Assembly (NCBI GenBank): GCA_963750665.1
Contig: CAVVRQ010000028.1
Location: 299,101-363,100 of the forward strand
Source of the DNA: an uncultured beta proteobacterium
GTDB lineage: Bacteria; Pseudomonadota; Gammaproteobacteria; Burkholderiales; Burkholderiaceae_C
DNA length: 64,000 nt
Reading direction: 5' to 3'
Each line of letters opens with the position of its first letter. Position 1 is the stretch's first letter. Shown here piece by piece: positions 20,991 through 52,745 of this stretch. A program made the translations under genes and the position numbers. A model generated the notes under the pieces. That model saw only the letters and a list, made by a program, of their open reading frames with translations, did not search any database and had not been told where the DNA came from.

Positions 20991-21045
20991 CACACGGCCT
21001 GGGGCACGGGTGTCGGCCGTCAGCGCCTGATCACAGTCGTTTTCA

Positions 21046-21897: not shown

Positions 21898-22006
21898 TCG
21901 GGTGCGGTCTCGCGCGCGCACCCGAGCCTGATGGCAGCGTGGCCGGTTTAGGCGTGGCTGGGCTGGACAGGTCCGCCGGGTAGCCCCGGCCTGCTATTCT
22001 CAAGCC

Positions 22007-22930: not shown

Positions 22931-23000
22931 TGGTGTCGGCGCCGTTGCCATCCCGTGTGTTTTTGTCTTCAATCGCCAACTCCAACACATTTAAATTACC

Positions 23001-23434
23001 ATGACTGCACAAGCGACCGTCGCTAGATTGTTAAGTTTTTCCAGGCCTTGTCCCCGGCAACGGTAGGTCAGCTCAGTGCCCTTTACGCCGCCGATGCGCG
23101 TTTCAAGGACCCATTTAACGACGTGCGGGGCCTGCCAGCCATCACGACGATTTTTGAGCACATGTTCGAGGCGCTGGAGCAGCCACGCTTTGTCGTCACC
23201 CAGCGCGTGGAGCAGGGCACGCAATGCTTTTTGACCTGGGAATTCCACTTCTGTTTCAAGCGCTTCCGGCCGGGACAGGCGCAGTGCATTCTGGGCAGCT
23301 CGCACCTGGTGCTTGATGCCACCGGCCGCATCACGCTGCACCGCGACTACTGGGACGCGGCTGAAGAGCTGTATGAAAAACTGCCGCTGCTGGGCGGGCT
23401 GATGCGTTGGTTGAAACGCCGGGCCAGGACGTAA
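23001..23434 (+). pseudogene. NTF2/SnoaL-like protein with an apparent 1-bp deletion near 23027 (or a sequencing error)
   Basis: ATG 23001 frame gives MTAQATVAR; the adjacent frame continues IVKFFQALSPATV...YAADARFKDPFNDVRG. Adding 1 base gives a 144-aa protein. Confidence 0.6.
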
Positions 23435-23479
23435 AGCGACGGCCCCGGCAGAGGCCAGTCTGCCGACGACAATCGCCCC

Positions 23480-36214: not shown

Positions 36215-36277
36215 GACTCGACGAGGTATGACGAACCGGGCTAGATTCAAGGATAAAAGTGTTACCGCAACCATCGT

Positions 36278-37201
36278 TCAGCGATGCAAAAAGCTGTGAG
36301 GATTCTGCGGATCTAAGTAGCGCTGCTTAAAGTACTGACGCACGGTTTTCATTGCAGGACTCATCACTGCGTCTGCGCGCCACGCCAAGCCTACGTTCAT
36401 ACTCGGAATATTCTCAACAGGCTTGATCGTTTCGATTCGTTTACCCTCCAACGACCATGGGCGATAAACCATGTCAGACAAAATTGCCACACCCAGATCG
36501 TTGGCCACCAGGCTGCGCACCGCTTCGATTGACTTGGTGTTCAAGGTGACGTTAGGCTCACAGCCATGCAGGTGCCAATAGCGAAGTGCCGAATCGGCGG
36601 CCTCATCGACCGTCAGCATAATGAATGGCTCTTGTGCGATTTCAGCAAAGCTAACCTGTCGTTTCGCTAAGAAGTGATGTTGCGGCGAAACCCATAACCG
36701 ACGTTGCGAGCTAAACAAGGTCTCTGTCTGAAGGGCAGGGTTACGGACGTTGGATGTCAGCAGCATTGCCATGTCGTAGTGTTGCGCGAGTAAACCCGAT
36801 TCAATCGTGTCGCGGTCAAGCTCCAGCATTCGGATGTGAAGTGCTGGATAAAGCAGCGACAAGCGCTGCAAATGATCCGGTAAAAAATAACCCATCACAG
36901 TGTAGGTGGCAGCCAGTGTCAGTTCCCCAGTAACTGGCGTAATTTGTTGCGGCATGTTTCGCGCATCGTCTACAGCCGCCAAAATTGCGTAGGCGCGGGT
37001 CAAAAAATGTCTGCCGTTGTCGGTCAGCTCCATGCCGTGGGATTGGCGGCTAAAAAGCCTGTACCCCAAACCGTCCTCCAACTCTCGGATCGAAATAGTC
37101 ACTGCTGACTGCGAAACCGACAACTCAACTGCAGCACGGGAGATTTGCCCCAGTTCAGCCGTTGCCGCAAAGTACTTAATTTGTCGCAGTGAAAAACGCA
37201 T
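36278..37201 (-). CDS. LysR-family regulator of the lam/pxp-like operon
   Basis: LRQIKYFAATAELGQISRAA..LSVSQSAVT..IRELE HTH; divergent from pxpA. Confidence 0.93.
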   Translation of the reverse strand: MRFSLRQIKYFAATAELGQISRAAVELSVSQSAVTISIRELEDGLGYRLFSRQSHGMELTDNGRHFLTRAYAILAAVDDARNMPQQITPVTGELTLAATYTVMGYFLPDHLQRLSLLYPALHIRMLELDRDTIESGLLAQHYDMAMLLTSNVRNPALQTETLFSSQRRLWVSPQHHFLAKRQVSFAEIAQEPFIMLTVDEAADSALRYWHLHGCEPNVTLNTKSIEAVRSLVANDLGVAILSDMVYRPWSLEGKRIETIKPVENIPSMNVGLAWRADAVMSPAMKTVRQYFKQRYLDPQNPHSFLHR

Positions 37202-37366
37202 TTCAAGACATCCCTCACGCTGAGGGGGATGAAAAAAATCAAGATATTTAGAAAACTAATACTAGCACCTTAAAAAATAGAATTATCTTTCCCTGCGCCA
37301 AACTTTTAATCTTCGGCAACTAGACGGTTTCTTAAGTGGCATCGCAACCAAGACAGCTGAACAAAA

Positions 37367-38155
37367 ATGGGCAAAGCAATGAAAAATGTGGTGGATTTGA
37401 ATTCTGACCTGGGGGAGGGATTTGGCCCATGGAGCATCGGAGATGGTGCGGACGAAGCTATCATGAGTCAGATCAGCTCCGCCAATATTGCAACTGGCTT
37501 TCACGCCGGCGATCCGAACATCATGCAGCGAATGGTGTCCTTGGCCAAGCATCATAACGTGGGCATTGGTGCGCACCCAGGCTTTCGCGACTTGGTTGGA
37601 TTTGGTCGGCGCGACATGAAAGCCTCCAGCCGTGAATTGCTGAACGACATCATTTATCAAACTGGCGCATTACGCGAATTTGCGCACTGGCAAGGCCTGA
37701 GTTTGCAGCACCTCAAATTGCATGGCGCACTCTACATGCGCGCAGCGATAGATGAAGAGTTGTCAATCGCTTTGATCAAGGCCCTGCAAGAGATTGAACC
37801 CAACTTGTATCTCTATTGCATGGAAGCATCTGTTACTTACAAGGTGGCCAAACAAATGGGGCATCCGGTAGTGCGAGAGTTTTATGGTGATCGCAGCTAC
37901 GACAAGACAGGGTCAATTGTATTTACACGCCAGGTTGGACAACTTGACCCGGCCATCGTCGCCGCCAGGGCCCTGCGCGCCTGTACCCACGGCGTAGTTC
38001 AAACGGTTGAAGGCGCAGACATCGCAATAGAATTTGATTCAATCTGCATCCACAGTGACACACCGGGTGCGCTGGCTCTGATCAAGGCCACAAGAACCGC
38101 GTTGACCAGCAACGGCATACAAATTGCCCCGTTGTCAGAAGTCATGCCGCGTTGA
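37367..38155 (+). CDS. pxpA: LamB/YcsF-family protein (PxpA-like)
   Basis: [51 protein letters not shown]. Confidence 0.92.
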
Positions 38156-38232
38156 ATCAGCCGGCACCCGACGGCCTATTGACCAGGTTTTGATTTGTTT
38201 GAACTGCACAGTACAACTTAGGAGCGCACAGC

Positions 38233-38466
38233 ATGGCTGAAATTCTTTCCCCTCTCCCCGGCACGTTCTATAGGCGACCCGCCCCGGATGCACCCAACTA
38301 CAAACAAGTCGGAGACCCTGTTGCGATCGACGAGGTGATCGGCTTGGTTGAAGTGATGAAGATGTTCAACGAAGTTCGCGCAGAAGTCAGCGGCAAGGTG
38401 GTGCGCTACACGATTGACAACGAAGCCCCGGTTGAAGCCGGACAAGTCTTGATGATCCTTGAATAA
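38233..38466 (+). CDS. Stand-alone biotin carboxyl carrier domain
   Basis: SPLPGTFYRRP, biotinylation motif EVMKMF; 77 aa. Confidence 0.92.
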   Translation: MAEILSPLPGTFYRRPAPDAPNYKQVGDPVAIDEVIGLVEVMKMFNEVRAEVSGKVVRYTIDNEAPVEAGQVLMILE

Positions 38467-38512
38467 CTGATCAAAATTGGGCCTCCCCACACCTCATAGC
38501 AAAGTCCATTTG

Positions 38513-39919
38513 ATGACAACCACGCACAAAGTACTGATAGCCAATCGCGGTGAAATTGCCGTTCGCATTGCTCGAGCCGCGCAGGAACTTGGACTGCAGA
38601 CCGTTGCGGTGGTAAGTGACGCCGACACCACCAGTCTGGTCGCACAGATGGCCGATCAGGTGGTCAATATTGGCCCCGCGCATCCAGCCAAAAGTTATTT
38701 GAATGCCGATGCCATTTTGCAGGCGGCGCGGTCAACCGGCGCCACTATGGTGCATCCTGGGTATGGTTTCCTGTCCGAGAACGCTGCATTTGCTCGCAAG
38801 GTCACTCAAGCCGGACTCATTTTCGTCGGGCCCAGCGCAGAGACCATCGAGTGCATGGGTAACAAATCCGTGGCACGCGAGACTGCTCAAAGAGCTGGGG
38901 TACCCACAGTTCCTGGAAGCAAAGGCACAGTCAAGGACGTGGAAACGGCGGCCAGGGTCGCCTCCGAGATTGGTTATCCCGTGATGATTAAGGCGTCAGC
39001 CGGAGGCGGTGGCCGTGGTATTCGTGTAGCACACAGTGAGCCTGAACTTCGTCATCACTTGCCGCTTGCGCAGAGTGAGGCACGTGCGGCATTTGGTGAC
39101 GACGCCGTCTATTTGGAACGCTTCATCGCCACGGCCCGGCATATCGAGGTTCAAATTCTGGGTGATGGGAAACGGGTTGTCCATTGTTATGAGCGAGAGT
39201 GCTCGTTGCAGAGAAGGCGGCAAAAGATCGTCGAGGAAGCGCCGTCACCGGCTTTATCGCAGATTAAACGCGATGCCCTGTGTGAATCAGCTGTTCGCCT
39301 GGCGAGCGCTGTCGGCTATAGCGGCGCTGGGACACTGGAGTTTTTATACGACGACGACAGTGGTGAGTTCTTCTTTATTGAAATGAATACCCGCATCCAG
39401 GTTGAACACCCGGTCAGCGAACTGGTGACTGGAGTTGATCTGGTGCGCGAAATGCTGCGCATTGGGATGGGAGAACCGCTAAGGTTTACGCAGGAACAGA
39501 TCGTCCTCAAAGGAGCCGCGATCGAATGCCGCTTGAACGCCGAAGATCCAGAGCGCAACTTCATGCCCAGCCCGGGAAGGTTGAGCTCCCTGCGCTGGCC
39601 AGATGGACCGGGTGTGCGGGTCGATACGCATGTGTACGCCGGCTACACCATCCCGCCTTTTTACGATTCCCTGCTGGCAAAATTGGCCGTATGGGATGAG
39701 GACAGGCCTGCCGCCTTGCGACGCATGCAACGAGCCTTGGCCGAAACCAGTATTGAGGGTGTCCACAGCACGGTTGCACTGCATCAGCAGTTGTTGGCTG
39801 ATCCTTCTGTCAAGAAAGGGCACTTTCACACTGGCTACCTTGAGCAATGGATGGCTGAACGAGCAGCCGCCAAAGCTCAAGCCCTGGCATTCCAGCCATC
39901 AGTCGAACAAGCTGTCTAG
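38513..39919 (+). CDS. Biotin carboxylase
   Basis: ANRGEIA, HPGYGFLSEN, GGGGRG, ECSLQRR.QK, EMNTRIQVEHPV, PFYDSLLAK; ATG 38513. Confidence 0.95.
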   Translation: MTTTHKVLIANRGEIAVRIARAAQELGLQTVAVVSDADTTSLVAQMADQVVNIGPAHPAKSYLNADAILQAARSTGATMVHPGYGFLSENAAFARKVTQAGLIFVGPSAETIECMGNKSVARETAQRAGVPTVPGSKGTVKDVETAARVASEIGYPVMIKASAGGGGRGIRVAHSEPELRHHLPLAQSEARAAFGDDAVYLERFIATARHIEVQILGDGKRVVHCYERECSLQRRRQKIVEEAPSPALSQIKRDALCESAVRLASAVGYSGAGTLEFLYDDDSGEFFFIEMNTRIQVEHPVSELVTGVDLVREMLRIGMGEPLRFTQEQIVLKGAAIECRLNAEDPERNFMPSPGRLSSLRWPDGPGVRVDTHVYAGYTIPPFYDSLLAKLAVWDEDRPAALRRMQRALAETSIEGVHSTVALHQQLLADPSVKKGHFHTGYLEQWMAERAAAKAQALAFQPSVEQAV

Positions 39920-39949
39920 CTGCCTTCGAGCCTTTCTATAGGAAAATTC

Positions 39950-40834
39950 ATGTCACTCCCACCAGCACGATATTCATTTGGCGGCGACGAACATATTTTC
40001 GTGGAACTCAACCACGACATGTCGCTGGAAGCTTTCTTTAAAGGCATGTCAATAACCAATGCCATCGCGCAGCGAAGGATTGCCGGCGTGACTGAAATTT
40101 GTCCGGCCAATGCTTCCTATCAAATCCGTTTTGACCCCGATCTGATGGCACCAGACAAGTTAATGGAGATTTTGAAATCGATTGAAATCGAGTTGGGCGA
40201 CGGTGCACTGGAACTCAACACACGCATCATCGAGATTCCCGTCTTCTACAACGACCCCTGGACTAACGAAACGCAACGGCGTTTTCGTGAGCGGCATCAG
40301 GACCCCACTTCAACTGACCTCGAATATGGCGCACGCGTCAATGGCTATGCGAATGTAGACGCGTTCATTGCTGCGCATGCTGCGTCGCCCTGGTTTGTGT
40401 CGATGGTTGGCTTTGTTGCGGGTCTGCCGTTCATGTTTCAGATGGTTGAGCGTGCCAAGCAGATTCAGGTTCCAAAATATCTCAGGCCACGCACGGATAC
40501 ACCCAAACTCACGATTGGGCACGGCGGCTGCTTCGGCTGCATCTATTCTGTGCGCGGTGCGGGTGGCTATCAAATGTTTGGCATCACGCCGGCGCCCATT
40601 TTTGATCCGCAACAAAGCCTGCCGTATGTCAAAGACTTCATGGTGTTTTTCCGCCCTGGAGACATTGTCAAATTCAAGCCAATAAACCGGTCCGAGTATG
40701 ACGCTGCACTGGCGAAAGTACAGGATGGAAGCTTCGACTTGCGCATCCGCGAGGTGAAGTTTTCACTGCAGGACTTTATTAAAGATCCGAGCGCTTACAA
40801 CCAACAATTGACGGAGACTTTGTATGGCAATTAA
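39950..40834 (+). CDS. Allophanate hydrolase subunit 1/carboxyltransferase domain (PxpB-like, long urea-carboxylase type)
   Basis: YSFGGDEHIFVE, IEIPVFY, GFVAGLPF, PRTDTP, GAGGYQMFGITP, FRPGDIVKF. Confidence 0.85.
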   Translation: MSLPPARYSFGGDEHIFVELNHDMSLEAFFKGMSITNAIAQRRIAGVTEICPANASYQIRFDPDLMAPDKLMEILKSIEIELGDGALELNTRIIEIPVFYNDPWTNETQRRFRERHQDPTSTDLEYGARVNGYANVDAFIAAHAASPWFVSMVGFVAGLPFMFQMVERAKQIQVPKYLRPRTDTPKLTIGHGGCFGCIYSVRGAGGYQMFGITPAPIFDPQQSLPYVKDFMVFFRPGDIVKFKPINRSEYDAALAKVQDGSFDLRIREVKFSLQDFIKDPSAYNQQLTETLYGN

Positions 40835-41801
40835 GGTACTACAAGCTGGACTTGCAACCACCGTACAGGATGCCGGTCGAATTGGTTATTACCACTTGGG
40901 CATTCCGCTTTCAGGCGCGCTTGATCAGTACTCCTTCCGTGCTGCCAATCTGCTGGTCGGCAACCCTGAAGTTTCCGCCACGCTCGAGATGACGATGCTC
41001 GGCCCGAAGCTGGAATTCACGCATGATTCTGTCATCGCGCTGACTGGCGCGAACTTGCCAGCCAGACTTGACGGCGTTCCCATGCCCGGCAACCAGGCGG
41101 TCGCGGTCAAGGCGGGTAGCGTGCTGAGTTTTGACTTTCTGAAAGAGGGAGTGCGCGCCTACCTCGCCGTGGCGGGAGGCATTGATGTGCCTGAGGTGCT
41201 TGGCAGTCGTTCAACTTACACCTTGGGGGCCATCGGTGGTTTTTGCGGAAGAAAGCTCCAAGCCGGTGATGTGTTGCCCGTGGGGGGTTTTCAGGGGCCA
41301 TCGCACGCAGGAAAAAAGCTGCCAGATCATTTGAAGCAAACCTTGCCCAAGAAGGTTCAGGTTCGCGTTCTTCCCGGCTTGTATTTTCATTGGCTGACCC
41401 AGGCCTCTGGAGAGTCGTTTTTTGAGGATACTTGGCGAGTTGGCCCGGAGGCAGACCGCATCGGCTATCGATTCAAGTATGGTCGACCGATGGAATTTGA
41501 GCCTCGGGAACGCCCTTTTGGCGCTGGTTCCGACCCATCGAACATTGTGGATGCCGGCTATCCCATTGGTTCGATACAAGTTCCTGGCGGTTTGGAACCC
41601 ATCGTCTTGCACCGCGATGCCGTATCCGGCGGTGGCTACGCCATGATTGGCACGGTCATCAGCGCAGATATGGATGTTGTGGCGCAACTACAGCCAAATT
41701 TTGAAACTCAATTTGTCGCGGTTGACATGGCGCAAGCCTTGAGTGCGCGCGCCCAACGCAGTCAACGCCTGGTTGATTTGCGACGGGCCCTATTGAGTTA
41801 G
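40824..41801 (+). CDS. Biotin-dependent carboxyltransferase/allophanate hydrolase subunit 2 (PxpC-like)
   Basis: GLATTVQDAGR, NLLVGN, LEMTMLGP, GVRAYLAVAGG, DRIGYR, GSIQVP, GGGY. Confidence 0.88.
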   Translation: MAIKVLQAGLATTVQDAGRIGYYHLGIPLSGALDQYSFRAANLLVGNPEVSATLEMTMLGPKLEFTHDSVIALTGANLPARLDGVPMPGNQAVAVKAGSVLSFDFLKEGVRAYLAVAGGIDVPEVLGSRSTYTLGAIGGFCGRKLQAGDVLPVGGFQGPSHAGKKLPDHLKQTLPKKVQVRVLPGLYFHWLTQASGESFFEDTWRVGPEADRIGYRFKYGRPMEFEPRERPFGAGSDPSNIVDAGYPIGSIQVPGGLEPIVLHRDAVSGGGYAMIGTVISADMDVVAQLQPNFETQFVAVDMAQALSARAQRSQRLVDLRRALLS

Positions 41802-41848
41802 GTTTCCTAGATATTTCGGCGAGTAATGACCTTACTTGTCTTCCCCAC

Positions 41849-41872
41849 CTTCGCACTGGTGCGAAGTTTTTT
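41849..41872 (+). terminator. Intrinsic terminator between the enzyme genes and the transporter genes
   Basis: CTTCGCAC-TG-GTGCGAAG followed by TTTTTT. Confidence 0.6.
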
Positions 41873-41902
41873 CAACCTTGACTTTTACTTATTGGAGATT
41901 TC

Positions 41903-42973
41903 ATGAAAAAAATATCCGCACCCACCTTGCTCGCCGGTGTCTTGTTGTCTGCCTCATTGACAGCACAAGCGGCGAATTGGTACCCCTACGCGGCCGAGCA
42001 GACTGAGCCTGCATTTTCTGACACCGGTGTGAAGAAACCCATCAACTACGCCCCACTGGCCAAAGCTGCCAAGAAGTGGAAGCTCTGCGTATCATTTCCC
42101 CATATGAAAGATGCCTACTGGCTGGGTGTTGACTATGGCGTGGTTGAGGAAGCGAAGCGTCTTGGCGTGTCGGCCCAGATACTCGAAGCCGGTGGTTACA
42201 CCAACTTGAACAAGCAGATTTCACAGATTGAAGACTGCGTCGCAGGCGGCGGCCAGGCTGTGGTTATTGGTGGCATTTCTGCCGATGGCTTGGCCAACCT
42301 GGTCAAGTCACTCAAAGCCAAAAATATTCCGGCAATTGATGTTATCAATGGTATCAATTCTCCCGACCTGACGGCCAAGTCGCTGGTCTCGTTCTATACG
42401 ATGGGGCAAGAAGCGGGTGCTTATTTGGCGAAAAAACACCCCGCAGGCAGCCCCAAGGCCGTAGTTGCGTGGTTTCCGGGCCCGGCGGGCGCTGGCTGGG
42501 TTGAGGCCGCTAACAAAGGTTTTGCTGAAGCTGTAAAGGGAAGCTCGCTGGAAGTGATGGCACCAATATATGGCGACACCGGCAAAGAAGTCCAGGCCAA
42601 GTTGGTTGAGGACTCTTTGCAATCGAACCCCGCCATACGCTATATCGCGGGCACCGCCGTCACCGCCGAAGTAAGCCAAGGTATTGTGCGCGCACGCAAC
42701 CTGAAGGACAAAGTACAAGTGATTTCGTTTTATTTGACTCCAGACGTCTACGCCGGCATTGAAAAGGGCACGATCATGGCTTCTCCCGCTGATGCGATGG
42801 TGATTCAAGGGCGCATAGCGATCGATCAAGCGGTGCGTGCTTTGGAAGGTAAAGACCTGATCAAGCATGTGGGGCCCAAGATTGTCACGATCGACAAAGC
42901 CAACTTGAAGAAGATTCGCCGTGATGATGTCCTGCCACCAGCATCATTCAAGCCATTGTTCGAAGTCAAGTAA
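41903..42973 (+). CDS. TorT-like periplasmic binding protein of a CUT2 ABC importer
   Basis: Signal peptide; WKLCVSFPHMKDAYWLGVDYG..EEAKRLGV, EAGGY resemble TorT; periplasmic binding protein type 1. Confidence 0.8.
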   Translation: MKKISAPTLLAGVLLSASLTAQAANWYPYAAEQTEPAFSDTGVKKPINYAPLAKAAKKWKLCVSFPHMKDAYWLGVDYGVVEEAKRLGVSAQILEAGGYTNLNKQISQIEDCVAGGGQAVVIGGISADGLANLVKSLKAKNIPAIDVINGINSPDLTAKSLVSFYTMGQEAGAYLAKKHPAGSPKAVVAWFPGPAGAGWVEAANKGFAEAVKGSSLEVMAPIYGDTGKEVQAKLVEDSLQSNPAIRYIAGTAVTAEVSQGIVRARNLKDKVQVISFYLTPDVYAGIEKGTIMASPADAMVIQGRIAIDQAVRALEGKDLIKHVGPKIVTIDKANLKKIRRDDVLPPASFKPLFEVK

Positions 42974-43064
42974 TGGAAACCTGCGGTTTGGGCGAAGTAC
43001 TTTTTGAATTTACTGTTTTGGTGACATCAAGAATGGCTTTGTTCAGGCGGCAGGTTAGCGTGCG

Positions 43065-44558
43065 ATGAGCAATGTTTTATTGTCCATCCAAGGCCTGTCA
43101 AAGGAGTTTCCGGGTGTACGCGCGCTCGATGGCGTGGATTTTGAACTGCTTGCCGGCGAGGTGCATGCACTATTTGGCGAGAATGGTGCAGGCAAGTCCA
43201 CCCTTATTTCCATTATTGCAGGGGCCCAACAGCAAGATAGCGGAACAATTCGCATGCACGGCGAGGAGCTTCGATTTTCGTCTGTCGCGGATGCCAGGCG
43301 ACAAGGCATCAGTGCTGTTTTCCAAGAGTTTTCTTTGGCACCGCACCTCACGGTTGAAGAAAATCTATGCTTGGGCGAAGAGCAACTTCATCAACGCTTG
43401 GGCCTGCTGCAATTGTCAGCCATGTCGCGCCATGCCAGGGCGCTCTTGCAGCGATTGAATTTCAAGATTGATCCCAAGAGAGTGGTTGCAACTCTGTCGC
43501 GCGCGGAGCAGCAAATGGTCGAGATTGCAAAGGCTTTACGCGCAAAGCTTTCGGTGCTGATTCTCGACGAGCCGACAGCCTCACTGACGGACAGAGAAAG
43601 CGAACAGTTGTTTTCAACTGTGCAAAGTTTGAAGCAACAAGGCGTAGGCATTATTTACATCACCCATCGGATTCAGGAGATCAAGCGCTTGGCTGATCGT
43701 GTGACCGTATTGCGTGATGGAAAACATATTGGCGTTGTGGATGCTGCGGCCACAACAGAAGCCAAACTCATTGAAATGATGGCGGGACGCAAAGTTGAAA
43801 AGATATATCCCACCATCGCAGCAGATCCGGGACGCAGCATCCTGGAACTTTCTGACATGCATGGCAGTGCCGACATTGAGGTTGAACACTTTGTCGTGCG
43901 GGAACGTGAAGTCGTTGGCGTTGCCGGTTTGGTCGGTTGTGGAAAATCGGAGCTACTACGCATGGCTTTTGGTATTGAGCCAATCGAATCTGGCATCGTC
44001 AAATTGGATGGACAGATCATCAAGAAGCCAACACCAAGACGCATGCTTGACGCTGGTGTTTTTTATCTTCCACCCGATCGTCGAGAAGAGGGTTTGATGC
44101 TTTCGGCCAGCACTTCCGACAACATTTCACTCAATGCATTGACTCAGCACCCCATTCGTTTTCGTTCCGGCTTTTTGTCTCTGTCTGCAGAGAGGACGGT
44201 AACGCGCGACATCAGCAGGCGGGTAGACATTCATGCAGCAAATTTGCCTCGTGCTACGGCACTTTTGTCGGGCGGAAACCAGCAAAAAGTCTTGTTCGGC
44301 CGAGGCTTGACGCGTTCCATCAAACTGTACATCTTTGATGAACCAACCGTGGGTGTGGATGTTGGTACACGCAGTGCAATCTATTACCTGATCAAGGAGT
44401 TGTGCGAAAGCGGCGCTGCCGTGATCCTGATTTCATCTGATTTACCTGAAATATTACACATGTCTCACCGCGTTTACGTCATGCGCTCTGGTCGTATAGC
44501 CGCTGAGATCGATCACAGCCGCCTCACCGAAGCGGTCCTATTGCAGCACTTTTTTTAG
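43065..44558 (+). CDS. CUT2 ABC ATP-binding protein (RbsA-like, two ATPase domains)
   Basis: GENGAGKST, LILDEPT, LSGGNQQKV, DEPTVGVDVG. Confidence 0.95.
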   Translation: MSNVLLSIQGLSKEFPGVRALDGVDFELLAGEVHALFGENGAGKSTLISIIAGAQQQDSGTIRMHGEELRFSSVADARRQGISAVFQEFSLAPHLTVEENLCLGEEQLHQRLGLLQLSAMSRHARALLQRLNFKIDPKRVVATLSRAEQQMVEIAKALRAKLSVLILDEPTASLTDRESEQLFSTVQSLKQQGVGIIYITHRIQEIKRLADRVTVLRDGKHIGVVDAAATTEAKLIEMMAGRKVEKIYPTIAADPGRSILELSDMHGSADIEVEHFVVREREVVGVAGLVGCGKSELLRMAFGIEPIESGIVKLDGQIIKKPTPRRMLDAGVFYLPPDRREEGLMLSASTSDNISLNALTQHPIRFRSGFLSLSAERTVTRDISRRVDIHAANLPRATALLSGGNQQKVLFGRGLTRSIKLYIFDEPTVGVDVGTRSAIYYLIKELCESGAAVILISSDLPEILHMSHRVYVMRSGRIAAEIDHSRLTEAVLLQHFF

Positions 44559-44586
44559 CCGACCACGTCAATGAAGGCAAACCAGA

Positions 44587-45618
44587 ATGAGTTCAATTGA
44601 TTCTGAGAACAATCCAGGTTCAAAGCACAAGCTCTCGGTGCGTGACTGGATGCTGAGGATATTTTTGCATTGGGGTGTCATGCCCTTCTTGCTTGTGATT
44701 GCAGTGGTTATTTTCAGTCTGATGTCGTCGCGTTTTCTGACGACCGAAAACTTGATCAATTTATTTCGCCAGTCGGTATATCTTGTACTGGTCTCGCTGG
44801 GTCAAATGTTGGCGCTAATTTCTGGGGGTTTTGACCTGTCGGTCGGCACCATTGTTGCTGTCGCATCCGTGGTGTCCGCCTTGACCATGGGTGCTCTGGC
44901 CCTCAGTTTTCCTGATGCAATTTGGCTGGTTATTGCTTTGGGTTGCTTGGCAGGTCTGGGTGCGGCAATGTTGATTGGAGTGGTCAACGGGGCAGGCGTC
45001 GCCATATTCGGGGTATCCCCGTTCATCATGACGCTTGGAATGCAATCGATTGGTTTTGGCATTGCCCTGTTTTTGACGGCCGGCGTTCCTGTCTCAGGCC
45101 TGCCCGACGCACTAGGAGATCTTTTCGGCTTTGGCGTGTTGTTTGGCGTTCCTGTGCCAATTCTGGTCATGTTGTTGATTCTGGCGCTTATGTTCGTCTT
45201 GTTGAACTACTCTGCCTGGGGCAGACACTTGTATGCAGTCGGTAGTAATCCAAAGGCCGCCTTGCTTTCGGGTATTCGAGTCAAACCAGTCCTTATCGGC
45301 GCCTACGTTTTGTGTGCATTGATCGCCGGCATATCGGGCCTGTTGCTCACAGCAAGAACTGCATCTGGAGATGCAAACTTGGGTGGCTCGATGGCACTTG
45401 AATCTATCGCTGCTTGTGTTATCGGTGGAGTGTCACTTCGTGGTGGCATCGGACGACTGGAAAACGTCGTATTAGGTGCGATATTTATCGGGCTCGTACA
45501 AAACGGAATGAATCTGGCACAAATCGGCTCGTACCTGCAGATTGTCGTACTCGGTGTGCTGCTAATTATTGCCGTCGTCTTTGATCGCATTCGCCAAAAG
45601 CGTTTGTACCGGCTTTAG
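44587..45618 (+). CDS. CUT2 ABC permease (RbsC-like)
   Basis: GGFDLSVG, PFIMTLG, GRHLYAVGSN..AA.LSGI, IGGVSLRGG.G. Confidence 0.95.
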   Translation: MSSIDSENNPGSKHKLSVRDWMLRIFLHWGVMPFLLVIAVVIFSLMSSRFLTTENLINLFRQSVYLVLVSLGQMLALISGGFDLSVGTIVAVASVVSALTMGALALSFPDAIWLVIALGCLAGLGAAMLIGVVNGAGVAIFGVSPFIMTLGMQSIGFGIALFLTAGVPVSGLPDALGDLFGFGVLFGVPVPILVMLLILALMFVLLNYSAWGRHLYAVGSNPKAALLSGIRVKPVLIGAYVLCALIAGISGLLLTARTASGDANLGGSMALESIAACVIGGVSLRGGIGRLENVVLGAIFIGLVQNGMNLAQIGSYLQIVVLGVLLIIAVVFDRIRQKRLYRL

Positions 45619-45695
45619 GTCGGCGCGCCACAAACCGTCAAGCGCGCAAGTTCACTTTTCTTCTTGATTTCGACTCACCAACACACTGAACTGAT

Positions 45696-46997
45696 ATGCA
45701 ACACAAACCTCAACTCACCAATGCGTCCCTGATGGCGCGGCGTCGGGCCGCCATTCCGCGCGGTGTCGGCCAAAGCCACGAAGTCTTCATCGCGCGCGGC
45801 GAGAACGCCGAAATCTGGGACGTCGAGGGCAAGCGCTACATCGACTTCGCAGGCGGCATCGCGGTACTCAATACCGGGCATTGCAACCCGAGCGTGATTG
45901 CCGCCGTCAAGGCCCAACTTGATCATTACACCCACACCTGCTTTCAGGTGCTGGCTTACGAACCCTACGTTGAGTTGGCCGAACGCATCAACGCGCTTGC
46001 TCCCGGTGACTTTGCCAAGAAGACGCTGTTTCTGAGCACTGGTGCCGAAGCCATTGAGAATGCGGTCAAGATCGCCCGCGCCTACACCAAGCGTGCCGCC
46101 ATCATCGCCTTCACCAGCGGCTACCACGGGCGCACGCTGCTGACGCTGGGTTTGACCGGCAAGGTGGCACCCTACAAAACCGGTTTTGGCCCGTTCCCGC
46201 CCGAGATCTTCCATGCCCAGTTTCCCAACGCGCTGCACGGAGTCAGCGTCGATGACGCCATCGCCTCAATCGAGTCGATCTTCAAAAATGACGTGGAAGC
46301 CAGTCGCGTGGCCGCCATCCTGGTGGAGCCGGTACAAGGCGAAGGCGGCTTCAACGTGGCACCGCCCGAATTCCTGCAACGCCTGCGCGTGCTGTGCGAC
46401 CAGCACGGCATTTTGCTCATCGCCGACGAGATCCAGACCGGCGCCGGACGCACCGGCACCTGGTTCGCGGTGGAGCAAAGCGGCGTTGAGCCCGACCTGA
46501 TCACGCTGGCCAAGTCGATGGCAGGGGGTTTCCCGATCTCCGCCGTGGTCGGTCGTGCCGAGGTCATGGACGCCCCCGCCCCCGGTGGCCTGGGCGGCAC
46601 CTATGCCGGCAGCCCGATGGCATGCGCGGCGGCTTTGGCGGTACTGAAGGTCTTTGAGAAAGAGAATCTGCTCGAGCGCAGCCGCAAGCTGGGTGTGCGT
46701 TTGACCGCCAGTTTGAAAAAAATGGCAGCCAGGAATTCCTGTATCGCCGACGTGCGCGGTCTGGGTGCCATGGTGGCGATGGAGCTCTGCAAGGGCGGCG
46801 ACATCCATCAGCCTGATGCCGATATGGCCAAACGGCTGGTCGCAGAAGCTACCCAACGCGGGCTCATTTTGTTGTCCTGCGGCACTTATGGCAACGTCAT
46901 CCGCATCCTGGTGCCGCTCACCGCCAGCGACGCGCTGGTGGATGAAGGTCTGGCCATCATCGACGCTGCGCTGACGGCCATTCAGGCCGACCAGTAA
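45696..46997 (+). CDS. gabT: 4-aminobutyrate/5-aminovalerate aminotransferase (GabT/DavT)
   Basis: DFAGGIAVLNTGH, HTCFQV, TGAEAIENAVKIAR, EPVQGEGGF, DEIQTG, AKS, GGTYAG. Confidence 0.93.
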   Translation: MQHKPQLTNASLMARRRAAIPRGVGQSHEVFIARGENAEIWDVEGKRYIDFAGGIAVLNTGHCNPSVIAAVKAQLDHYTHTCFQVLAYEPYVELAERINALAPGDFAKKTLFLSTGAEAIENAVKIARAYTKRAAIIAFTSGYHGRTLLTLGLTGKVAPYKTGFGPFPPEIFHAQFPNALHGVSVDDAIASIESIFKNDVEASRVAAILVEPVQGEGGFNVAPPEFLQRLRVLCDQHGILLIADEIQTGAGRTGTWFAVEQSGVEPDLITLAKSMAGGFPISAVVGRAEVMDAPAPGGLGGTYAGSPMACAAALAVLKVFEKENLLERSRKLGVRLTASLKKMAARNSCIADVRGLGAMVAMELCKGGDIHQPDADMAKRLVAEATQRGLILLSCGTYGNVIRILVPLTASDALVDEGLAIIDAALTAIQADQ

Positions 46998-47057
46998 CTT
47001 TACATCCTAAGCCATCTGACCGACGACAGGTCGGCGCATCAACCCTTGAGCCCTTAT

Positions 47058-47372
47058 ATGACATTTTCAAATCCAAGCAGCAGGAAGATCAAACGCCCCC
47101 AGGCAGTTCCTAGCGTGCAGGTGTCAAACGAACATGTCATCGTAACTGAATGGCGATTTGCGCCTGGTGCCGAAACTGGCTGGCACACTCATGGCCACAA
47201 CTATGTCGTGGTACCTCAAACCAACGGTGACCTTCTGCTTGAAACCCCAGAGGGACAAATGACGGCGATTTTGGTAGCGGGTCAATCGTACGCGCGGGCT
47301 ACCGGGGTTCAACATAATGTTGTCAACTCATCCTCTCATGAACTGGTTTTCATTGAAATTGAAGTTCTGTGA
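47058..47372 (+). CDS. bauB: Small cupin, BauB-like
   Basis: RPQAVPSVQV..EHVIVTEWRFAPGAETGWHTH..YVVVP...LLLETPEG...GVQHNVVN closely matches Pseudomonas BauB as recalled. Confidence 0.72.
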   Translation: MTFSNPSSRKIKRPQAVPSVQVSNEHVIVTEWRFAPGAETGWHTHGHNYVVVPQTNGDLLLETPEGQMTAILVAGQSYARATGVQHNVVNSSSHELVFIEIEVL

Positions 47373-47423
47373 CCGGCATTTTGGAAAATCTCAATACTTC
47401 AACCTTAACCCGGAGTAACTACC

Positions 47424-48884
47424 ATGCTGCAACTCAAAGACCCAACCCTGTTGCGCCAGCAAGCCTATATCAACGGCCAATGGTGCAATGCCGATAGCGG
47501 CGAAACCTGTGCCGTGACCAACCCGGCTACCGGTGAAACCATCGGAACTGTGCCAAAAATGGGCGCAGCAGAAACCCGCCGTGCGATCGCTGCGGCAAAC
47601 GCAGCCTGGCCTGCCTGGCGTGCCAAGACCGGCAAAGAACGCAGCGCCGTGATACGCAAATGGAATGACCTGATGCTCGCCAATGCCGACGATCTGGGCA
47701 TGATCATGACCGTTGAGCAGGGTAAACCGCTGGCTGAAGCCAAGGGCGAAATCGCTTACGCGGCATCCTTTGTCGAGTGGTTCGCTGAAGAAGCCAAACG
47801 CGTCAGCGGCGACACACTGGCCTCACCCTGGACCGATCGCCGAATCGTTGTCATCAAACAACCTATCGGTGTCTGCGCGGCCATCACGCCCTGGAATTTC
47901 CCCTCCTCGATGATTACCCGCAAAGCTGGCCCGGCGCTGGCTGCAGGCTGCCCGATGGTCCTGAAACCGGCGTCAGCGACACCCTATTCAGCACTGGCGC
48001 TGGCCGTGCTGGCCGAGCGCGCCGGCGTATCACCGGGCATCTTCAGTGTTTTGACCGGGTCTGCCGGCGCCATTGGTGGCGAGATGAGCGCCAACCCCAC
48101 GGTGCGAAAGCTCTCTTTCACCGGTTCCACCTCAGTCGGCAGTATGCTGATGCAGCAATGCGCCAAGACCATCAAGAAGCTGTCATTGGAGTTGGGCGGC
48201 AACGCCCCCTTCATCGTGTTTGACGATGCCAATCTGGACGCAGCAGTCGAGGGCGCCATGATGTCGAAATACCGCAATGCGGGTCAGACTTGCGTCTGCG
48301 CCAACCGCTTGTATGTGCAAGACGGTGTCTATGATGCGTTTGCCAAGAAGCTGGTCGCGGCGGTGGAGAAGCTCAAGGTCGGCAATGGGGTCGAAGCAGG
48401 TGTCACACAGGGCCCACTGATTGACGACGCGGCGATTAAAAAAGTGGAAGAGCATGTTGCCGATGCATTGGCCAAGGGCGGGCGACTTCTCACTGGCGGC
48501 AAACGCCATGCACTCGGACACAGCTTCTTCGAACCGACCGTGATCGCTGATGCCACGCCTGACATGCTGGTCGCACGCGAGGAAACCTTTGGTCCCCTGG
48601 CGCCGCTGTTTCGCTTCAAGACCGACGCTGAGGCGATTGCCATGGCCAACGATACCGAGTTTGGTCTGGCCAGCTACTTCTATTCACGCGACATTGGGCG
48701 CATCTGGCGCGTTGGGGAGGCAATCGAGAGCGGCATGGTCGGCATCAACACTGGGATAATTTCCAACGAAGTTGCGCCCTTTGGCGGCGTCAAGCAGTCC
48801 GGACTGGGCCGCGAAGGCTCCAAGTACGGGATCGAGGAATATCTGGTGATCAAGTACTTGTGCATGGGCGGCCTGGATAAGTGA
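47424..48884 (+). CDS. gabD: NAD(P)-dependent succinate/glutarate-semialdehyde dehydrogenase (GabD/DavD)
   Basis: AITPWNFP, FTGST.VG, LELGGNAP, GQTCVC, EETFGP, PFGGVKQSG.GREGS. Confidence 0.95.
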   Translation: MLQLKDPTLLRQQAYINGQWCNADSGETCAVTNPATGETIGTVPKMGAAETRRAIAAANAAWPAWRAKTGKERSAVIRKWNDLMLANADDLGMIMTVEQGKPLAEAKGEIAYAASFVEWFAEEAKRVSGDTLASPWTDRRIVVIKQPIGVCAAITPWNFPSSMITRKAGPALAAGCPMVLKPASATPYSALALAVLAERAGVSPGIFSVLTGSAGAIGGEMSANPTVRKLSFTGSTSVGSMLMQQCAKTIKKLSLELGGNAPFIVFDDANLDAAVEGAMMSKYRNAGQTCVCANRLYVQDGVYDAFAKKLVAAVEKLKVGNGVEAGVTQGPLIDDAAIKKVEEHVADALAKGGRLLTGGKRHALGHSFFEPTVIADATPDMLVAREETFGPLAPLFRFKTDAEAIAMANDTEFGLASYFYSRDIGRIWRVGEAIESGMVGINTGIISNEVAPFGGVKQSGLGREGSKYGIEEYLVIKYLCMGGLDK

Positions 48885-49533: not shown

Positions 49534-50439
49534 TTACGGGTTGGATGCTGCGGCCTGCTGCAGCCAGCGCACAAAAGTCTTGATCACCGGCCGCTCGTCG
49601 GCGCGCTCGGGTTGTACCAAATAATAGGCGCGATCGCTGGGCAAGGGCTGCTGGCAGGCCACCACCAGCTCACCGCGCGTCAGTTCGGCCTCGATCAGCA
49701 AACGCGGCACCAGCGCCAGCCCCAGACCGCAGGCAGCCGCCGCGGCGGTCATCGAAAAGAGCTCGAAGCGCGCGCCAGACAGCGCTTTGGGAGCAGCCAC
49801 CCCCTGCGCGTCAAACCAACGCCGCCAGCCGTCCATGCGGGTGCTTTGTTGCAGCAGCGACAACTCGGCCATCGCCTCGGGCGTGAGCGCGCCTTGCGGG
49901 CCCAGAAATTGTGGGCTGCAGACCGGCACCACTTCTTCGCTCAACAGCCGCAAGGCGCGCGTGCCAGCCCAGTTGCCCACCTGCTCGGGCGTGCCGGCAT
50001 AGAGCGCGGCGTCGAACCCGGCGTCGGCAAACATGAAGGGCCGGGTGCGAGTCTCGATGTGGACCGCGATCTCCGGCTGCAGCGCCTTCAGGGCGGGCAG
50101 GCGCGGGATCAGCCAGCGCGTAGCAAAGGTCGGCACCGCTGCCAGGTGGAGGGCTCCGCTCTGGCCCTGCGCCGACATCACATCAAGCGTGTCCTGCTCC
50201 AGCGCTTGCAGGCGCGGCGCCACCTGATGCGCGTACTCGGCACCGCGCTCGGTCAGCACCACGCCATGGCGCGTGCGGCGAAAGAGGGCAACGCCGACAA
50301 ACTCCTCCAGCCCGGCAATTTGCCGCGACACCGCACCCTGCGTGAGCGAGAGTTCTTGCGCGGCGCGGCTGTAGCTCTCATGGCGGGCGGCGGCTTCAAG
50401 ACAGGCCAGGGCTTGCAGCGAAGGGATTTTTCGGCGCAT
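49534..50439 (-). CDS. gcdR: GcvA-type LysR regulator, probably GcdR
   Basis: MRRKIPSLQAL, LTQGAVSRQI, VPTFATRWLIPRL; divergent from gcdH. Confidence 0.75.
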   Translation of the reverse strand: MRRKIPSLQALACLEAAARHESYSRAAQELSLTQGAVSRQIAGLEEFVGVALFRRTRHGVVLTERGAEYAHQVAPRLQALEQDTLDVMSAQGQSGALHLAAVPTFATRWLIPRLPALKALQPEIAVHIETRTRPFMFADAGFDAALYAGTPEQVGNWAGTRALRLLSEEVVPVCSPQFLGPQGALTPEAMAELSLLQQSTRMDGWRRWFDAQGVAAPKALSGARFELFSMTAAAAACGLGLALVPRLLIEAELTRGELVVACQQPLPSDRAYYLVQPERADERPVIKTFVRWLQQAAASNP

Positions 50440-50464
50440 CAATGACCCACAGTGAAGACTCGGG

Positions 50465-50893
50465 TCATGCAGTGACTGGCATGCTGTGCCACCAGAGCTG
50501 GCATTGGCGGCACAAGCCTGCTGTGTCGAACTCGGCGCTCAGCACGCCGTCAAGCACCATGCGGGGCAGTGGATCACCGGGTTTGCGCGCAACGAGATTG
50601 GTGCCGGTGGACTTGGCCCAGATCTGGAACAGCTCTTCCGAGGCGACCTGGTACGTGACGTGCCAATGCGCGATGCCGCTGCTGGCGCTGGACGCCAGCA
50701 CCTCATAGACGACCTGAACGTCTTGCTGAAGTTTGACGCGACGCCAATACTCGGCCAGTTGTGTCGGCCCGCGCTGCACGGCAAAAGGCGTGTTGTGGTA
50801 TTCGCCGTCCGGCGCAAACAGCGCGACGAACTTGGTTTCGTCGCGTGCCTCCCAAGCGGCTTTGTAGCCATGCATGAATTGCGTGATGTGCAT
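50465..50893 (-). CDS. NTF2/SnoaL-like protein
   Basis: YKAAWEARD....LFAPDGEY...PF.....G...LAEYW, AHW, EF...WW; ATG 50893. Confidence 0.7.
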   Translation of the reverse strand: MHITQFMHGYKAAWEARDETKFVALFAPDGEYHNTPFAVQRGPTQLAEYWRRVKLQQDVQVVYEVLASSASSGIAHWHVTYQVASEELFQIWAKSTGTNLVARKPGDPLPRMVLDGVLSAEFDTAGLCRQCQLWWHSMPVTA

Positions 50894-50967
50894 TTTGCTG
50901 ATCTCCAATGTTTGATTTGATAATATGCAGATTTTGGATATTAATTTAATTTAGAACCAATCAAAAC

Positions 50968-51009
50968 GCTATCTACTTTGTAGCTGTTTGCGCAATCTGA
51001 TATAAGGAC
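50968..51009 (+). repeat. Fixed-spacer block repeat, copy C (degenerate 3' block)
   Basis: GCTAT-N7-GTAGCTGTTTGCGCA-N6-TATAAGGAC. Confidence 0.6.
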
Positions 51010-51175
51010 CAGATGCCAAAAATGATGATCAAATTGAAAATTGACGGTTACGCCATTTGTCATCATGATATATCAAATTGGAATACCATTATGAAAACAA
51101 TTCGCGTACCACGCGTGCGCACGAGCCCCCGCCCTGGATTAGGATTGCATCCATTCATTTACCTGGAGACTCCCC

Positions 51176-52369
51176 ATGGCGCACGCCGCATTCAACTGGC
51201 AAGACCCCTTTTTGCTGAGCAGCCAGCTCAGCGACGACGAACGCATGGTGCAGGCCGCTGCCAGCGCCTATTGCCAGGACAAGCTGCTGCCGCGCGTGTT
51301 GGAAGCCTTTCGCGCCGAAAAAACCGATGTCTCGATTTTTCGCGAGATGGGCGCGCTCGGCCTGCTCGGGCCCACCATTCCGGAAGCCTACGGTGGCCCG
51401 GGTTTAAGCTACGTGGCCTACGGCCTGATTGCGCGCGAAGTCGAGCGCGTTGACTCCGGCTATCGCTCGATGATGAGCGTGCAAAGCTCGCTCGTAATGC
51501 TGCCGATATTTGACTTTGGCACCGAAGCGCAAAAGCAAAAGTATCTGCCCAAACTCGCCACCGGCGAGTGGATCGGCTGCTTTGGCCTGACCGAGCCCGA
51601 CCATGGCTCCGATCCCGGCTCGATGGCCACACGCGCGCACAAGGTGGCGGGTGGCTACAAGCTCAGTGGCAGCAAGATGTGGATTTCCAACTCGCCCATC
51701 GCCGACGTGTTTGTGGTCTGGGCCAAGGAGGTGTCTGAGTCCGGCCAGGTGGGACCAATTCGCGGCTTTGTGCTGGACAAAGGCGCCAAGGGTTTGAGCG
51801 CCCCGGCGATTCACGGCAAGGTTGGTCTGCGCGCTTCCATCACCGGCGAGATCGTCATGGACAGCGTGTTCTGCCCGGAAGAAAACGCCTTCCCTGAGAT
51901 CCGTGGCCTCAAAGGCCCGTTCACCTGCCTGGACTCGGCGCGCTACGGCATCGCCTGGGGCACGCTGGGTGCGGCCGAAGACTGCTGGCTGCGCGCGCAC
52001 CGCTACGTGATGGAGCGCAAGCAGTTTGGCCGCCCGCTCGCCGCCAACCAGTTGATCCAGAAGAAACTGGCCGACATGCAGACCGAGATTGCGCTGGGCC
52101 TGCAGGGCTGCCTGCGCCTGGGGCGCATGAAAGACGAAGGCACAGCGTCGGTTGAAATCACTTCGATCCTGAAACGCAACTCCTGCGGCAAGTCGCTCGA
52201 CATTGCCCGCCTGGCGCGCGACATGATGGGCGGCAACGGCATCAGCGACGAGTTCGGTGTGGCGCGCCATTTGGTGAATCTGGAAGTGGTTAACACCTAC
52301 GAAGGCACGCACGACATCCACGCGCTGATTCTGGGCCGCGCGCAGACCGGGATTCAGGCGTTTAATTAA
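51176..52369 (+). CDS. gcdH: Glutaryl-CoA dehydrogenase
   Basis: [61 protein letters not shown]; SD GGAG. Confidence 0.96.
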
Positions 52370-52395
52370 TTGGGGTCAGATTCCAATTATTTTTT
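52367..52395 (+). terminator. Palindrome overlapping the gcdH stop, followed by a T-tract
   Basis: TAATTGGGGTCAGATTCCAATTA then TTTTTT. Confidence 0.65.
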
Positions 52396-52437
52396 CCTTC
52401 TCAGTGACCAGGGATATTGATGCGACAGTCTGTGGAG

Positions 52438-52669
52438 GCAGCGGGTGGGGTATTGGGGCCCGCCTCATACGCGCTTCGCTTTGCGAAATCGGCGGACCCC
52501 AATACCCCACCCGCTGCTGCGCGCGCCTTGGTGTGCCAACTTTGAAAACCCGGCTTCTGGCATTCATCGTCGCAAACTCATATGCCGTTCGGGCCGTGGG
52601 TGCTAAGGCAGGGGGTCGATTTCGCAAAGCGAAGCGCGTATGAGGCCCACTGCCTTAGCACCCGCGGCC
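52438..52669. repeat. Twin-hairpin element: two unrelated long stems carrying the same 26-nt loop in opposite orientation
   Basis: Stem 1 52438-52464/52491-52517 (26/27 paired); stem 2 52592-52617/52644-52669. Loop TCATACGCGCTTCGCTTTGCGAAATC (52465-52490) is the exact reverse complement of 52618-52643. Confidence 0.9.
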
Positions 52670-52745
52670 AGCCACAACCACTTGCCCAACAACGATAACA
52701 AGCCCCGGACTTCAACCCCACCACGCTAACCGATTCACTCGCACC

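Follow-up and report, generated by a model that had tools for sequence, protein, structure and literature searches.

What does an operon do that joins a LamB-type hydrolase, a biotin carboxylase with its own carrier protein and two carboxyltransferase subunits to an importer and the genes gabT and gabD? The question is raised by a locus in a stretch of 64,000 nucleotides from an uncultured beta proteobacterium (GenBank assembly GCA_963750665.1, contig CAVVRQ010000028.1, positions 299,101 to 363,100), which is called the window below; coordinates are those of the window unless another sequence is named. We think it fairly probable that the locus is a catabolic operon under LysR control whose substrate is a small lactam, most likely 2-pyrrolidinone (gamma-butyrolactam), which would be degraded via 4-aminobutyrate (GABA) to succinate. 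Three points are inferred: which substrate the organism uses, that the ring is activated by N-carboxylation, and what a small cupin encoded in the operon does.

Gene families were assigned with Pfam and NCBIfam profile scans of the window proteins. The scans confirmed, gene for gene and in position, the run from LamB/PxpA to gabD with a divergent LysR gene that a first-pass annotation of this DNA had named. The locus is an eleven-gene plus-strand operon with spacings of -11 to 101 bp (the overlap of 11 bp is that of pxpB and pxpC), and a convergent gene 46 bp past gabD closes it. Its features are as follows.

36278-37201, minus strand: LysR-type regulator (HTH_1 and LysR_substrate), likely the lactam sensor/activator
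37243-37290, LysR-pxpA intergenic region: AT-rich conserved block, a candidate operator/promoter
37367-38155, plus strand: PxpA/LamB metal hydrolase, the proposed ring-opening subunit (LamB_YcsF, 295 bits; NF003814, 297 bits against a cut-off of 226)
38233-38466, plus strand: minimal biotin carboxyl carrier protein (BCCP) of 77 amino acids with the motif EVMKMF (Biotin_lipoyl, 54 bits; NF005457, 122 bits against a cut-off of 87)
38477-39919, plus strand: dedicated biotin carboxylase (BC; NF009471, 798 bits against a cut-off of 686)
39950-40834, plus strand: long PxpB-like protein of 294 amino acids, equivalent to the urea carboxylase carboxyltransferase C/D domain (CT_C_D, 124 bits)
40824-41801, plus strand: PxpC-like protein, equivalent to the carboxyltransferase A/B domain (CT_A_B, 309 bits; TIGR00724, 283 bits against a cut-off of 230)
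41849-41876, plus strand: terminator-like hairpin with a T run between the enzyme and importer genes, a possible attenuation point
41903-42973, plus strand: TorT-like periplasmic binding protein (NF008185, 419 bits against a cut-off of 200)
43065-44558, plus strand: CUT2-type tandem ATPase of an ATP-binding cassette (ABC) transporter (two ABC_tran domains; best models AraG and RbsA, both below their cut-offs)
44587-45618, plus strand: CUT2 permease (BPD_transp_2)
45696-46997, plus strand: GabT, 4-aminobutyrate aminotransferase (TIGR00700, 592 bits against a cut-off of 507)
47046-47372, plus strand: small cupin of 108 amino acids, of the family of PDB 2FQP and 3LAG (Cupin_2, 24.7 bits, below the cut-off)
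47424-48884, plus strand: GabD, NADP-dependent succinate-semialdehyde dehydrogenase and last gene of the operon (NF008415, 857 bits against a cut-off of 828)

RefSeq labels the parts of this set as acetyl-CoA carboxylase, allophanate hydrolase subunit 1, biotin-dependent carboxyltransferase and 5-oxoprolinase subunit A. In an alignment to solved biotin carboxylases, the motifs of the BC were intact (the GGGGRG loop, EMNTRIQVEHP and ECRLNAEDP), and the protein shares at most 52% identity with the four other BC paralogues of the genome; the EVMKMF motif of the carrier holds the lysine that is biotinylated. The long PxpB scored higher with the urea-carboxylase model TIGR02712 (104 bits, positions 804-1078) than with the PxpB model TIGR00370 (70 bits, cut-off 146), and it aligns with residues 836-1113 of the Kluyveromyces lactis urea carboxylase 3VA7. 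PxpC reached 235 bits with the PxpC equivalog NF045499, which has a cut-off of 500, and both subunits thus stay below the models of the canonical PxpABC 5-oxoprolinase. PxpA, the product of the sole LamB gene of the genome, clears a subfamily model only (NF003814).

Could the cassette then simply be a 5-oxoprolinase, or a split urea or guanidine carboxylase, beside which gabT, the cupin gene and gabD stand by an accident of landing? NCBIfam does name PxpA a 5-oxoprolinase subunit, with no second LamB gene in the genome, and the domain set is that of urea carboxylase. However, the genome has a separate open frame for a fused hydantoinase A/B protein of about 1260 amino acids, of the eukaryote-like 5-oxoprolinase type (C19:139066-142851), which is the probable housekeeping 5-oxoprolinase, and the cassette is patchy within the genus, being carried by 6 of 49 species; it is therefore unlikely to be the housekeeping enzyme. 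A urea or guanidine carboxylase proper was rejected, since the window pieces score 24-537 bits with TIGR02712 (cut-off 1304), no amidase is found among the window genes and no DUF1989 gene in the genome; the first-pass annotation was right that allophanate amidase and carboxyguanidine deiminase genes are missing. PxpB and PxpC fall below the equivalog cut-offs for urea carboxylase and for PxpB/PxpC alike. Taken with the gene linkages described below, we judge this explanation very improbable.

The identity of the substrate is suggested by relatives in Pseudomonas. In a study of P. putida KT2440 by random barcode transposon-site sequencing, PP_2920-2, a PxpABC paralogue, was required for the use of butyrolactam as nitrogen source, with mutant fitness of about -4 to -5 for PP_2919-2922 in one pair of conditions, which we take from the text to be butyrolactam as nitrogen source (bioRxiv 10.1101/2021.12.09.472016). 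According to the same study, deletion of PP_2920-2 abolishes growth on butyrolactam and PP_2920-2 alone complements it; these genes do not substitute for the enzymes of 5-oxoproline or valerolactam, 5-oxoproline needing PP_4575-7; and the LysR protein PP_2919 activates a reporter specifically with butyrolactam, so that enzyme and regulator are both butyrolactam-specific among four lactams (bioRxiv 10.1101/2021.12.09.472016). The first-pass annotation had assigned the characterised bacterial lactamases (CapAB, OplBA) to the hydantoinase type; this view is outdated, PP_2920-2 being of the PxpABC type.

LysR, PxpA, PxpB and PxpC of one Pseudomonas sp. locus that has no BC or BCCP (L072) are 56, 62, 68, and 65% identical to the window proteins, and the window LysR is 55-56% identical to the LysR proteins adjoining the Pseudomonas three-gene loci. 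P. putida-group genomes encode LysR (305 amino acids), LamB (252), CT_C_D (295) and CT_A_B (323) in the order and with the annotations of PP_2919-2922, and the window has the same layout of PxpA, long PxpB and PxpC with a divergent LysR. The three-gene PxpB is unchanged among P. putida-group genomes, including S16 and HB3267; the 62-68% identity is that of the window to the Pseudomonas PxpABC proteins. Judged from these sequences, the window LysR-PxpABC genes are orthologous to the Pseudomonas LysR-PxpABC locus, and that locus is very likely PP_2919-2922, on the strength of gene order, annotation and P. putida-group homologues, not of the KT2440 sequence itself. The same orthology bears on the alternative of a 5-oxoprolinase, the P. 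putida study assigning 5-oxoproline to PP_4575-7 and not to the orthologue (bioRxiv 10.1101/2021.12.09.472016).

In the pathway that we propose, the lactam would enter the cell through the CUT2 ABC transporter with its TorT-like binding protein. BC would carboxylate the carrier-bound biotin (the carrier being the 77-residue protein) at the expense of ATP and bicarbonate, and PxpC with the long PxpB, acting as a split urea-carboxylase carboxyltransferase, would move the carboxyl group to the ring amide nitrogen. PxpA/LamB would hydrolyse the activated ring, the resulting carbamate would lose CO2 to yield GABA, and GabT and GabD would convert GABA to succinate. Both of the latter proteins score above the equivalog cut-offs of GABA aminotransferase and succinate-semialdehyde dehydrogenase. 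So read, the window has the pathway in its most complete form within one operon, from import through ring opening and transamination to oxidation.

To place the operon among its relatives, 80 species-level loci with a long PxpB were taken and their neighbours scored, with genes called by an open reading frame caller weighted by G+C content at third codon positions (GC3); the 61 loci with adequate flanks form the base of the counts. The long PxpB is found in more than 7500 proteins at E<=1e-20, many of them about 70% identical across classes. The cassette is adjoined by BC in 60 loci, BCCP in 59 and PxpA in 60. A TorT-type ABC importer, upstream in some lineages and downstream in others, is present in 31 and a distant NCS1-type permease in 17, one or the other in 48. 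Further neighbours are cupin (14 loci), GabT (11 loci, 56-74% identical), GabD (3 loci), bioB (10), bioA (7), bioY (5), hydantoinase A (8) and hydantoinase B (6).

The GabT neighbours show at least six gene orders, with gabT behind the permease gene, behind pxpC, between the permease and cupin genes or behind the cupin gene, and they occur in Variovorax, Rhodoferax, other Burkholderiales, Xanthobacteraceae, Hoeflea and Anaeromyxobacter-type (Myxococcota-type) metagenome-assembled genomes (MAGs). All neighbouring GabT homologues that were tested clear the GABA-aminotransferase cut-off. By a rough estimate, gabT would lie within 10 kb of a random gene in less than 1% of cases; set against 11 of 61, the link is therefore real and facultative. 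This recurrence in independent gene orders argues against an accident of landing, as does the cassette-type cupin between gabT and gabD. The first-pass annotation had proposed that a lactam is opened to an omega-amino acid which GabT and GabD remove. The orthology to the Pseudomonas LysR-PxpABC proteins (55, 62, 68, and 65% identity), the match to PP_2919-2922 and the recurrent GabT speak for that route; the generality of its last steps does not hold up to the same degree, with gabT in 11 of the 61 loci and gabT together with gabD in 3. It had also named absence of the gabT/gabD linkage from other genomes as a reason to abandon the proposal. The linkage does occur elsewhere, in several orders, for gabT; for the pair it is rare, with those three loci.

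How the operon was put together can be read from base composition and homology. GC3 is 0.53-0.63 from the LysR gene to the permease gene, 0.48 in the cupin gene, 0.77 in gabT, 0.69 in gabD and 0.68-0.82 in the flanks. DNA homology with the three closest relatives (L002, L003 and L005, all from Rhodoferax-type MAGs) spans exactly 36277-45618 at 79-87% identity and ends at 45616-45618, the stop codon of the permease gene; the flanks are unrelated. Given these sharp borders, the unrelated flanks and the occurrence in 6 of 49 species, the 9.3-kb block from LysR to permease is a discrete, horizontally moved module. A cupin gene directly follows the permease gene in L003, and the order permease-gabT-cupin-gabD is common to the window and a more distant Rhodoferax locus (L050). 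In GC3 the cupin gene resembles the cassette and gabT resembles the host. The sharp borders and foreign GC3 of the module, the absence of gabT and gabD from the closest relatives and the host origin of the window gabT are points that favour the landing accident.

That origin is evident from a second gabT in the genome. Over 1267 bp the window gene (45719-46985) is 100% identical to C29:174917-176183, and when the pair is extended (45684-46985 against C29:174882-176183) all 7 differences fall within the first 35 bp. The shared tract is sharply bounded: it starts 12 bp ahead of the ATG and breaks off 12 bp short of the stop codon. The window gabD is only 65% identical to the second gabD on C29. 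These data indicate a very recent gene conversion or duplication from a housekeeping gabT-gabD pair. An assembly artefact was rejected as the source of the duplicated gabT, both copies lying inside long contigs with different flanks and 7 differences; a small residual chance attaches to homogenisation of the copies during assembly polishing.

Downstream of the operon, at 49534-54005, are genes for a GcvA-type LysR regulator (49534-50442, minus strand), an acyl-CoA dehydrogenase (51176-52369) and a CaiB-family CoA-transferase (52746-54005), the last with succinate-glutarate CoA-transferase as its best match (493 bits, cut-off 750). By the families of its proteins, this group looks like a glutarate/glutaryl-CoA catabolic cluster. 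It lies outside the transferred module and has host-like GC3.

Is biotin part of the chemistry? From its gene neighbourhoods the carboxyltransferase appears functionally tied to BC and BCCP, given the adjacency in 60 and 59 of the 61 loci and the natural fusions, with the loss in Pseudomonas described below as counter-example. The fusions are BC-PxpB (about 770 amino acids, with 63-71% identity in the PxpB part), PxpC-PxpB-BCCP (about 670 amino acids) and LamB-BC-PxpB (990 amino acids). The genes bioA, bioB or bioY adjoin the cassette in three independent configurations: bioA with bioB in Burkholderia (L018, L051, L055, L056, L058, L067), bioB after gabT in some Burkholderiales MAGs (L012, L020, L038) and bioY in Beijerinckiaceae-type and other Hyphomicrobiales (L052, L060, L061, L065). 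A mycobacterial PxpC/PxpB-like pair, solved in 2026 by cryo-electron microscopy, grips the biotin of BCCP, and no urea carboxylase activity was detected for it (PMC13012033).

The situation in Pseudomonas is different. A long PxpB was found in 68 of 201 Pseudomonas species sampled, and among the best 30 loci 15 have the three-gene form, 14 have BC directly upstream of PxpB and one holds a remnant (L116; G140, C1:3064278-3068141). In this remnant, a deletion of 1143 bp relative to the five-gene locus L081 removes most of BCCP and residues 1-309 of BC; PxpA, PxpB and PxpC are kept intact. PxpB of three-gene and of BC-bearing loci is more than 90% identical, and no dedicated BC orthologue was found elsewhere in the genome examined with the three-gene form.

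Several observations weigh against a biotin-dependent, lactam-specific operon. BC and BCCP are missing from 15 of the 30 Pseudomonas loci with PxpABC intact and no dedicated BC was found elsewhere in the three-gene genome; such loci can therefore do without a biotin module of their own, and it is to this form that the proven butyrolactam enzyme belongs. Canonical PxpBC is reported in a review to hydrolyse ATP without biotin. A literature search for a biotin-dependent lactamase or for work on the five genes together found neither; it yielded the P. putida study and, for PA0492-0496, no more than mentions in transcriptome data. Gene order, annotation and P. putida-group homologues, rather than the KT2440 sequence, are what place PP_2921 in the long-PxpB family, and an identity of 62-68% between proteins would be no guarantee of the same substrate. 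The gabT linkage is a minority feature (11 of 61 loci, 3 of 61 with gabD) that is absent from the three closest relatives, and the window gabT is a fresh copy of a housekeeping gene. Finally, the downstream glutarate-type cluster would also fit a route from 2-piperidone via 5-aminovalerate to glutarate.

The first of these points bring in an alternative in which PxpABC alone opens the lactam and BC/BCCP is either accessory, for rate or regulation, or a relic being lost. In its favour are the half of the sampled Pseudomonas loci that lack BC and BCCP while their PxpB is over 90% identical to that of BC-bearing loci, the deletion intermediate caught at L116, the three-gene genome without a dedicated BC elsewhere, the reported complementation by PP_2920-2 alone and the ATP hydrolysis reported for canonical PxpBC. 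We nevertheless regard it as unlikely: outside the Pseudomonas loss, 60 of the 61 loci retain BC and 59 retain BCCP, BC, BCCP and Pxp parts have repeatedly been fused into one polypeptide, bioA, bioB and bioY travel with the cassette, and a PxpC-like protein binds the biotin of BCCP in a solved complex (PMC13012033). Moreover, none of the P. putida experiments was done in the absence of the housekeeping AccB and AccC, which could have supplied carboxybiotin in trans.

A stand-alone PxpBC that takes carboxybiotin from the cell's own BCCP would, as far as the sequences go, fit the facts on both sides. Pursuing this, the five proteins may form a biotin-dependent lactam amidolyase, which would treat a ring amide as urea amidolyase treats urea, with N-carboxylation first and hydrolysis second. 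On an extended view, stand-alone PxpABC enzymes (the P. putida butyrolactamase, perhaps also the housekeeping 5-oxoprolinase) would use carboxybiotin in trans from the BCCP of the cell. We offer this joint proposal tentatively, as possible but rather doubtful. If it is true, in-trans carboxybiotin would explain both the ATP requirement of PxpABC and the seat of the mycobacterial PxpBC pair on BCCP.

A further alternative concerns the substrate, which could be another cyclic amide or ureide (2-piperidone, a substituted pyrrolidinone, succinimide or a hydantoin-like compound), GabT and GabD then serving a related omega-amino acid such as 5-aminovalerate. Besides the glutarate-type cluster, the company of the cassette is compatible with it: its neighbours include hydantoinase A/B at 8 loci, amidohydrolases of the isochorismatase type at 3 and a cupin at 14, and the alternative transporter is NCS1-like, of a family that carries hydantoins and pyrimidines. 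We find this reading quite improbable, since the P. putida orthologue and its regulator are reported to be butyrolactam-specific among four lactams, the glutarate-type genes lie outside the module with host-like GC3, and GabD scores above the cut-off of the succinate-semialdehyde dehydrogenase equivalog.

The degradation of 2-pyrrolidinone via GABA is the reading with which we compare other systems. In Aspergillus nidulans, lamA, which encodes a urea-carboxylase-like protein, and lamB are needed for growth on 2-pyrrolidinone, by a proposed route through GABA. The fungal LamA/LamB domain set is BC, CT_A_B, CT_C_D and BCCP with a LamB hydrolase, as in the window, LamA being one fused protein. 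To our knowledge, the evidence for lamA and lamB is genetic only. Searched with BC, PxpC, PxpB and BCCP joined into one query, the databases gave fused proteins of which the best are only 30-36% identical to the window PxpC and PxpB, and none of them was identifiable as LamA. The operon is best read as an extended form of the P. putida butyrolactam system and as a split bacterial counterpart of lamA/lamB. It shares with PP_2919-2922 a divergent LysR and PxpA, long PxpB and PxpC in the same order, and likely the conversion of 2-pyrrolidinone to GABA; unlike the window, the P. putida locus lacks BCCP, BC, importer and linked gabT/gabD, and the evidence there is genetic, without a study of mechanism.

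With urea carboxylase (K. lactis, PDB 3VA7 and 5I8I; TIGR02712), the BC, carboxyltransferase A/B and C/D and BCCP parts align, and the proposed logic of N-carboxylation followed by hydrolysis is the same, but the window enzyme is split into four proteins and has a PxpA/LamB partner in place of the amidase-family allophanate hydrolase. Canonical PxpABC (Escherichia coli YbgJKL, Bacillus subtilis, Corynebacterium glutamicum pxpTABC) has the same three-subunit core with a LamB-type hydrolase; the window differs from it in a PxpB that is about 50-80 amino acids longer and nearer to urea carboxylase, and in the dedicated BC and BCCP. MSMEG_0435-0436 (Rv0263c-0264c) is likewise a PxpC/PxpB-type pair and physically binds BCCP biotin, but it uses the BCCP of a long-chain acyl-CoA carboxylase, and a regulatory role has been proposed for it, with no lactam role known (PMC13012033).

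In the candidate operator region between the LysR gene and pxpA, about 47 bp are nearly invariant in 7 loci and the surrounding intergenic sequence is poorly conserved. A promoter-like site lies on the minus strand at 37309-37282. The hairpin at 41849-41876 is a consensus match only, such sites being no more frequent in the region than in shuffled sequence. The binding protein is 67% identical to PDB 4YHS (BBta_2440) and 33% to TorT; its AlphaFold2 model has a predicted local distance difference test score of 85.5, with a disordered N-terminus that resembles a signal peptide.

New here are an operon that is complete from import to succinate, the precise limits of the transferred module, the conversion event at gabT, the finding that a cupin accompanies the cassette, and the evidence for loss of BC and BCCP in Pseudomonas. 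The five genes occur very widely (in a third of the sampled Pseudomonas species, in Burkholderia and on Rhizobium megaplasmids), and a correct assignment would repair thousands of annotations and supply a route of lactam use. The cassette also offers a direct way to ask whether PxpBC-type proteins, including those of 5-oxoprolinase and Rv0263c/Rv0264c, are carboxyltransferases. Lactam hydrolases and the LysR sensors that go with them are of use, too, in nylon-monomer and pyrrolidone biotechnology.

Other observations were made on the cassette and on the window. Hydantoinase A/B pairs of the OplA/B or CapA/B type adjoin the cassette at L011, L052, L059-L062, L065, L069 and L074, so that several lineages have two kinds of enzyme for ATP-dependent lactam opening side by side. 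In loci without the ABC importer, a conserved membrane protein of 450 amino acids follows PxpC (L009:8475-9827 and 19 further loci), in Burkholderia, Paraburkholderia, Caballeronia, Neisseria-type hosts and one Pseudomonas five-gene locus; it gave a full-length Transp_cyt_pur (NCS1) match of 23.2 bits, the cut-off being 23.5, and no NCBIfam match. Long PxpB is encoded on 90 plasmid records. One of the plasmid cassettes, a LysR gene with the five genes and without linked transporter or gabT, is on the conjugative megaplasmid pRL12 of the well-studied laboratory strain Rhizobium johnstonii 3841 (NC_008378.1, 150205-155620; L127). Elsewhere in the window, at 20001-24000, the AT skew is strongly negative (-0.24 to -0.30) over a run of plus-strand open reading frames at 18062-22930, which are perhaps membrane-transporter genes.

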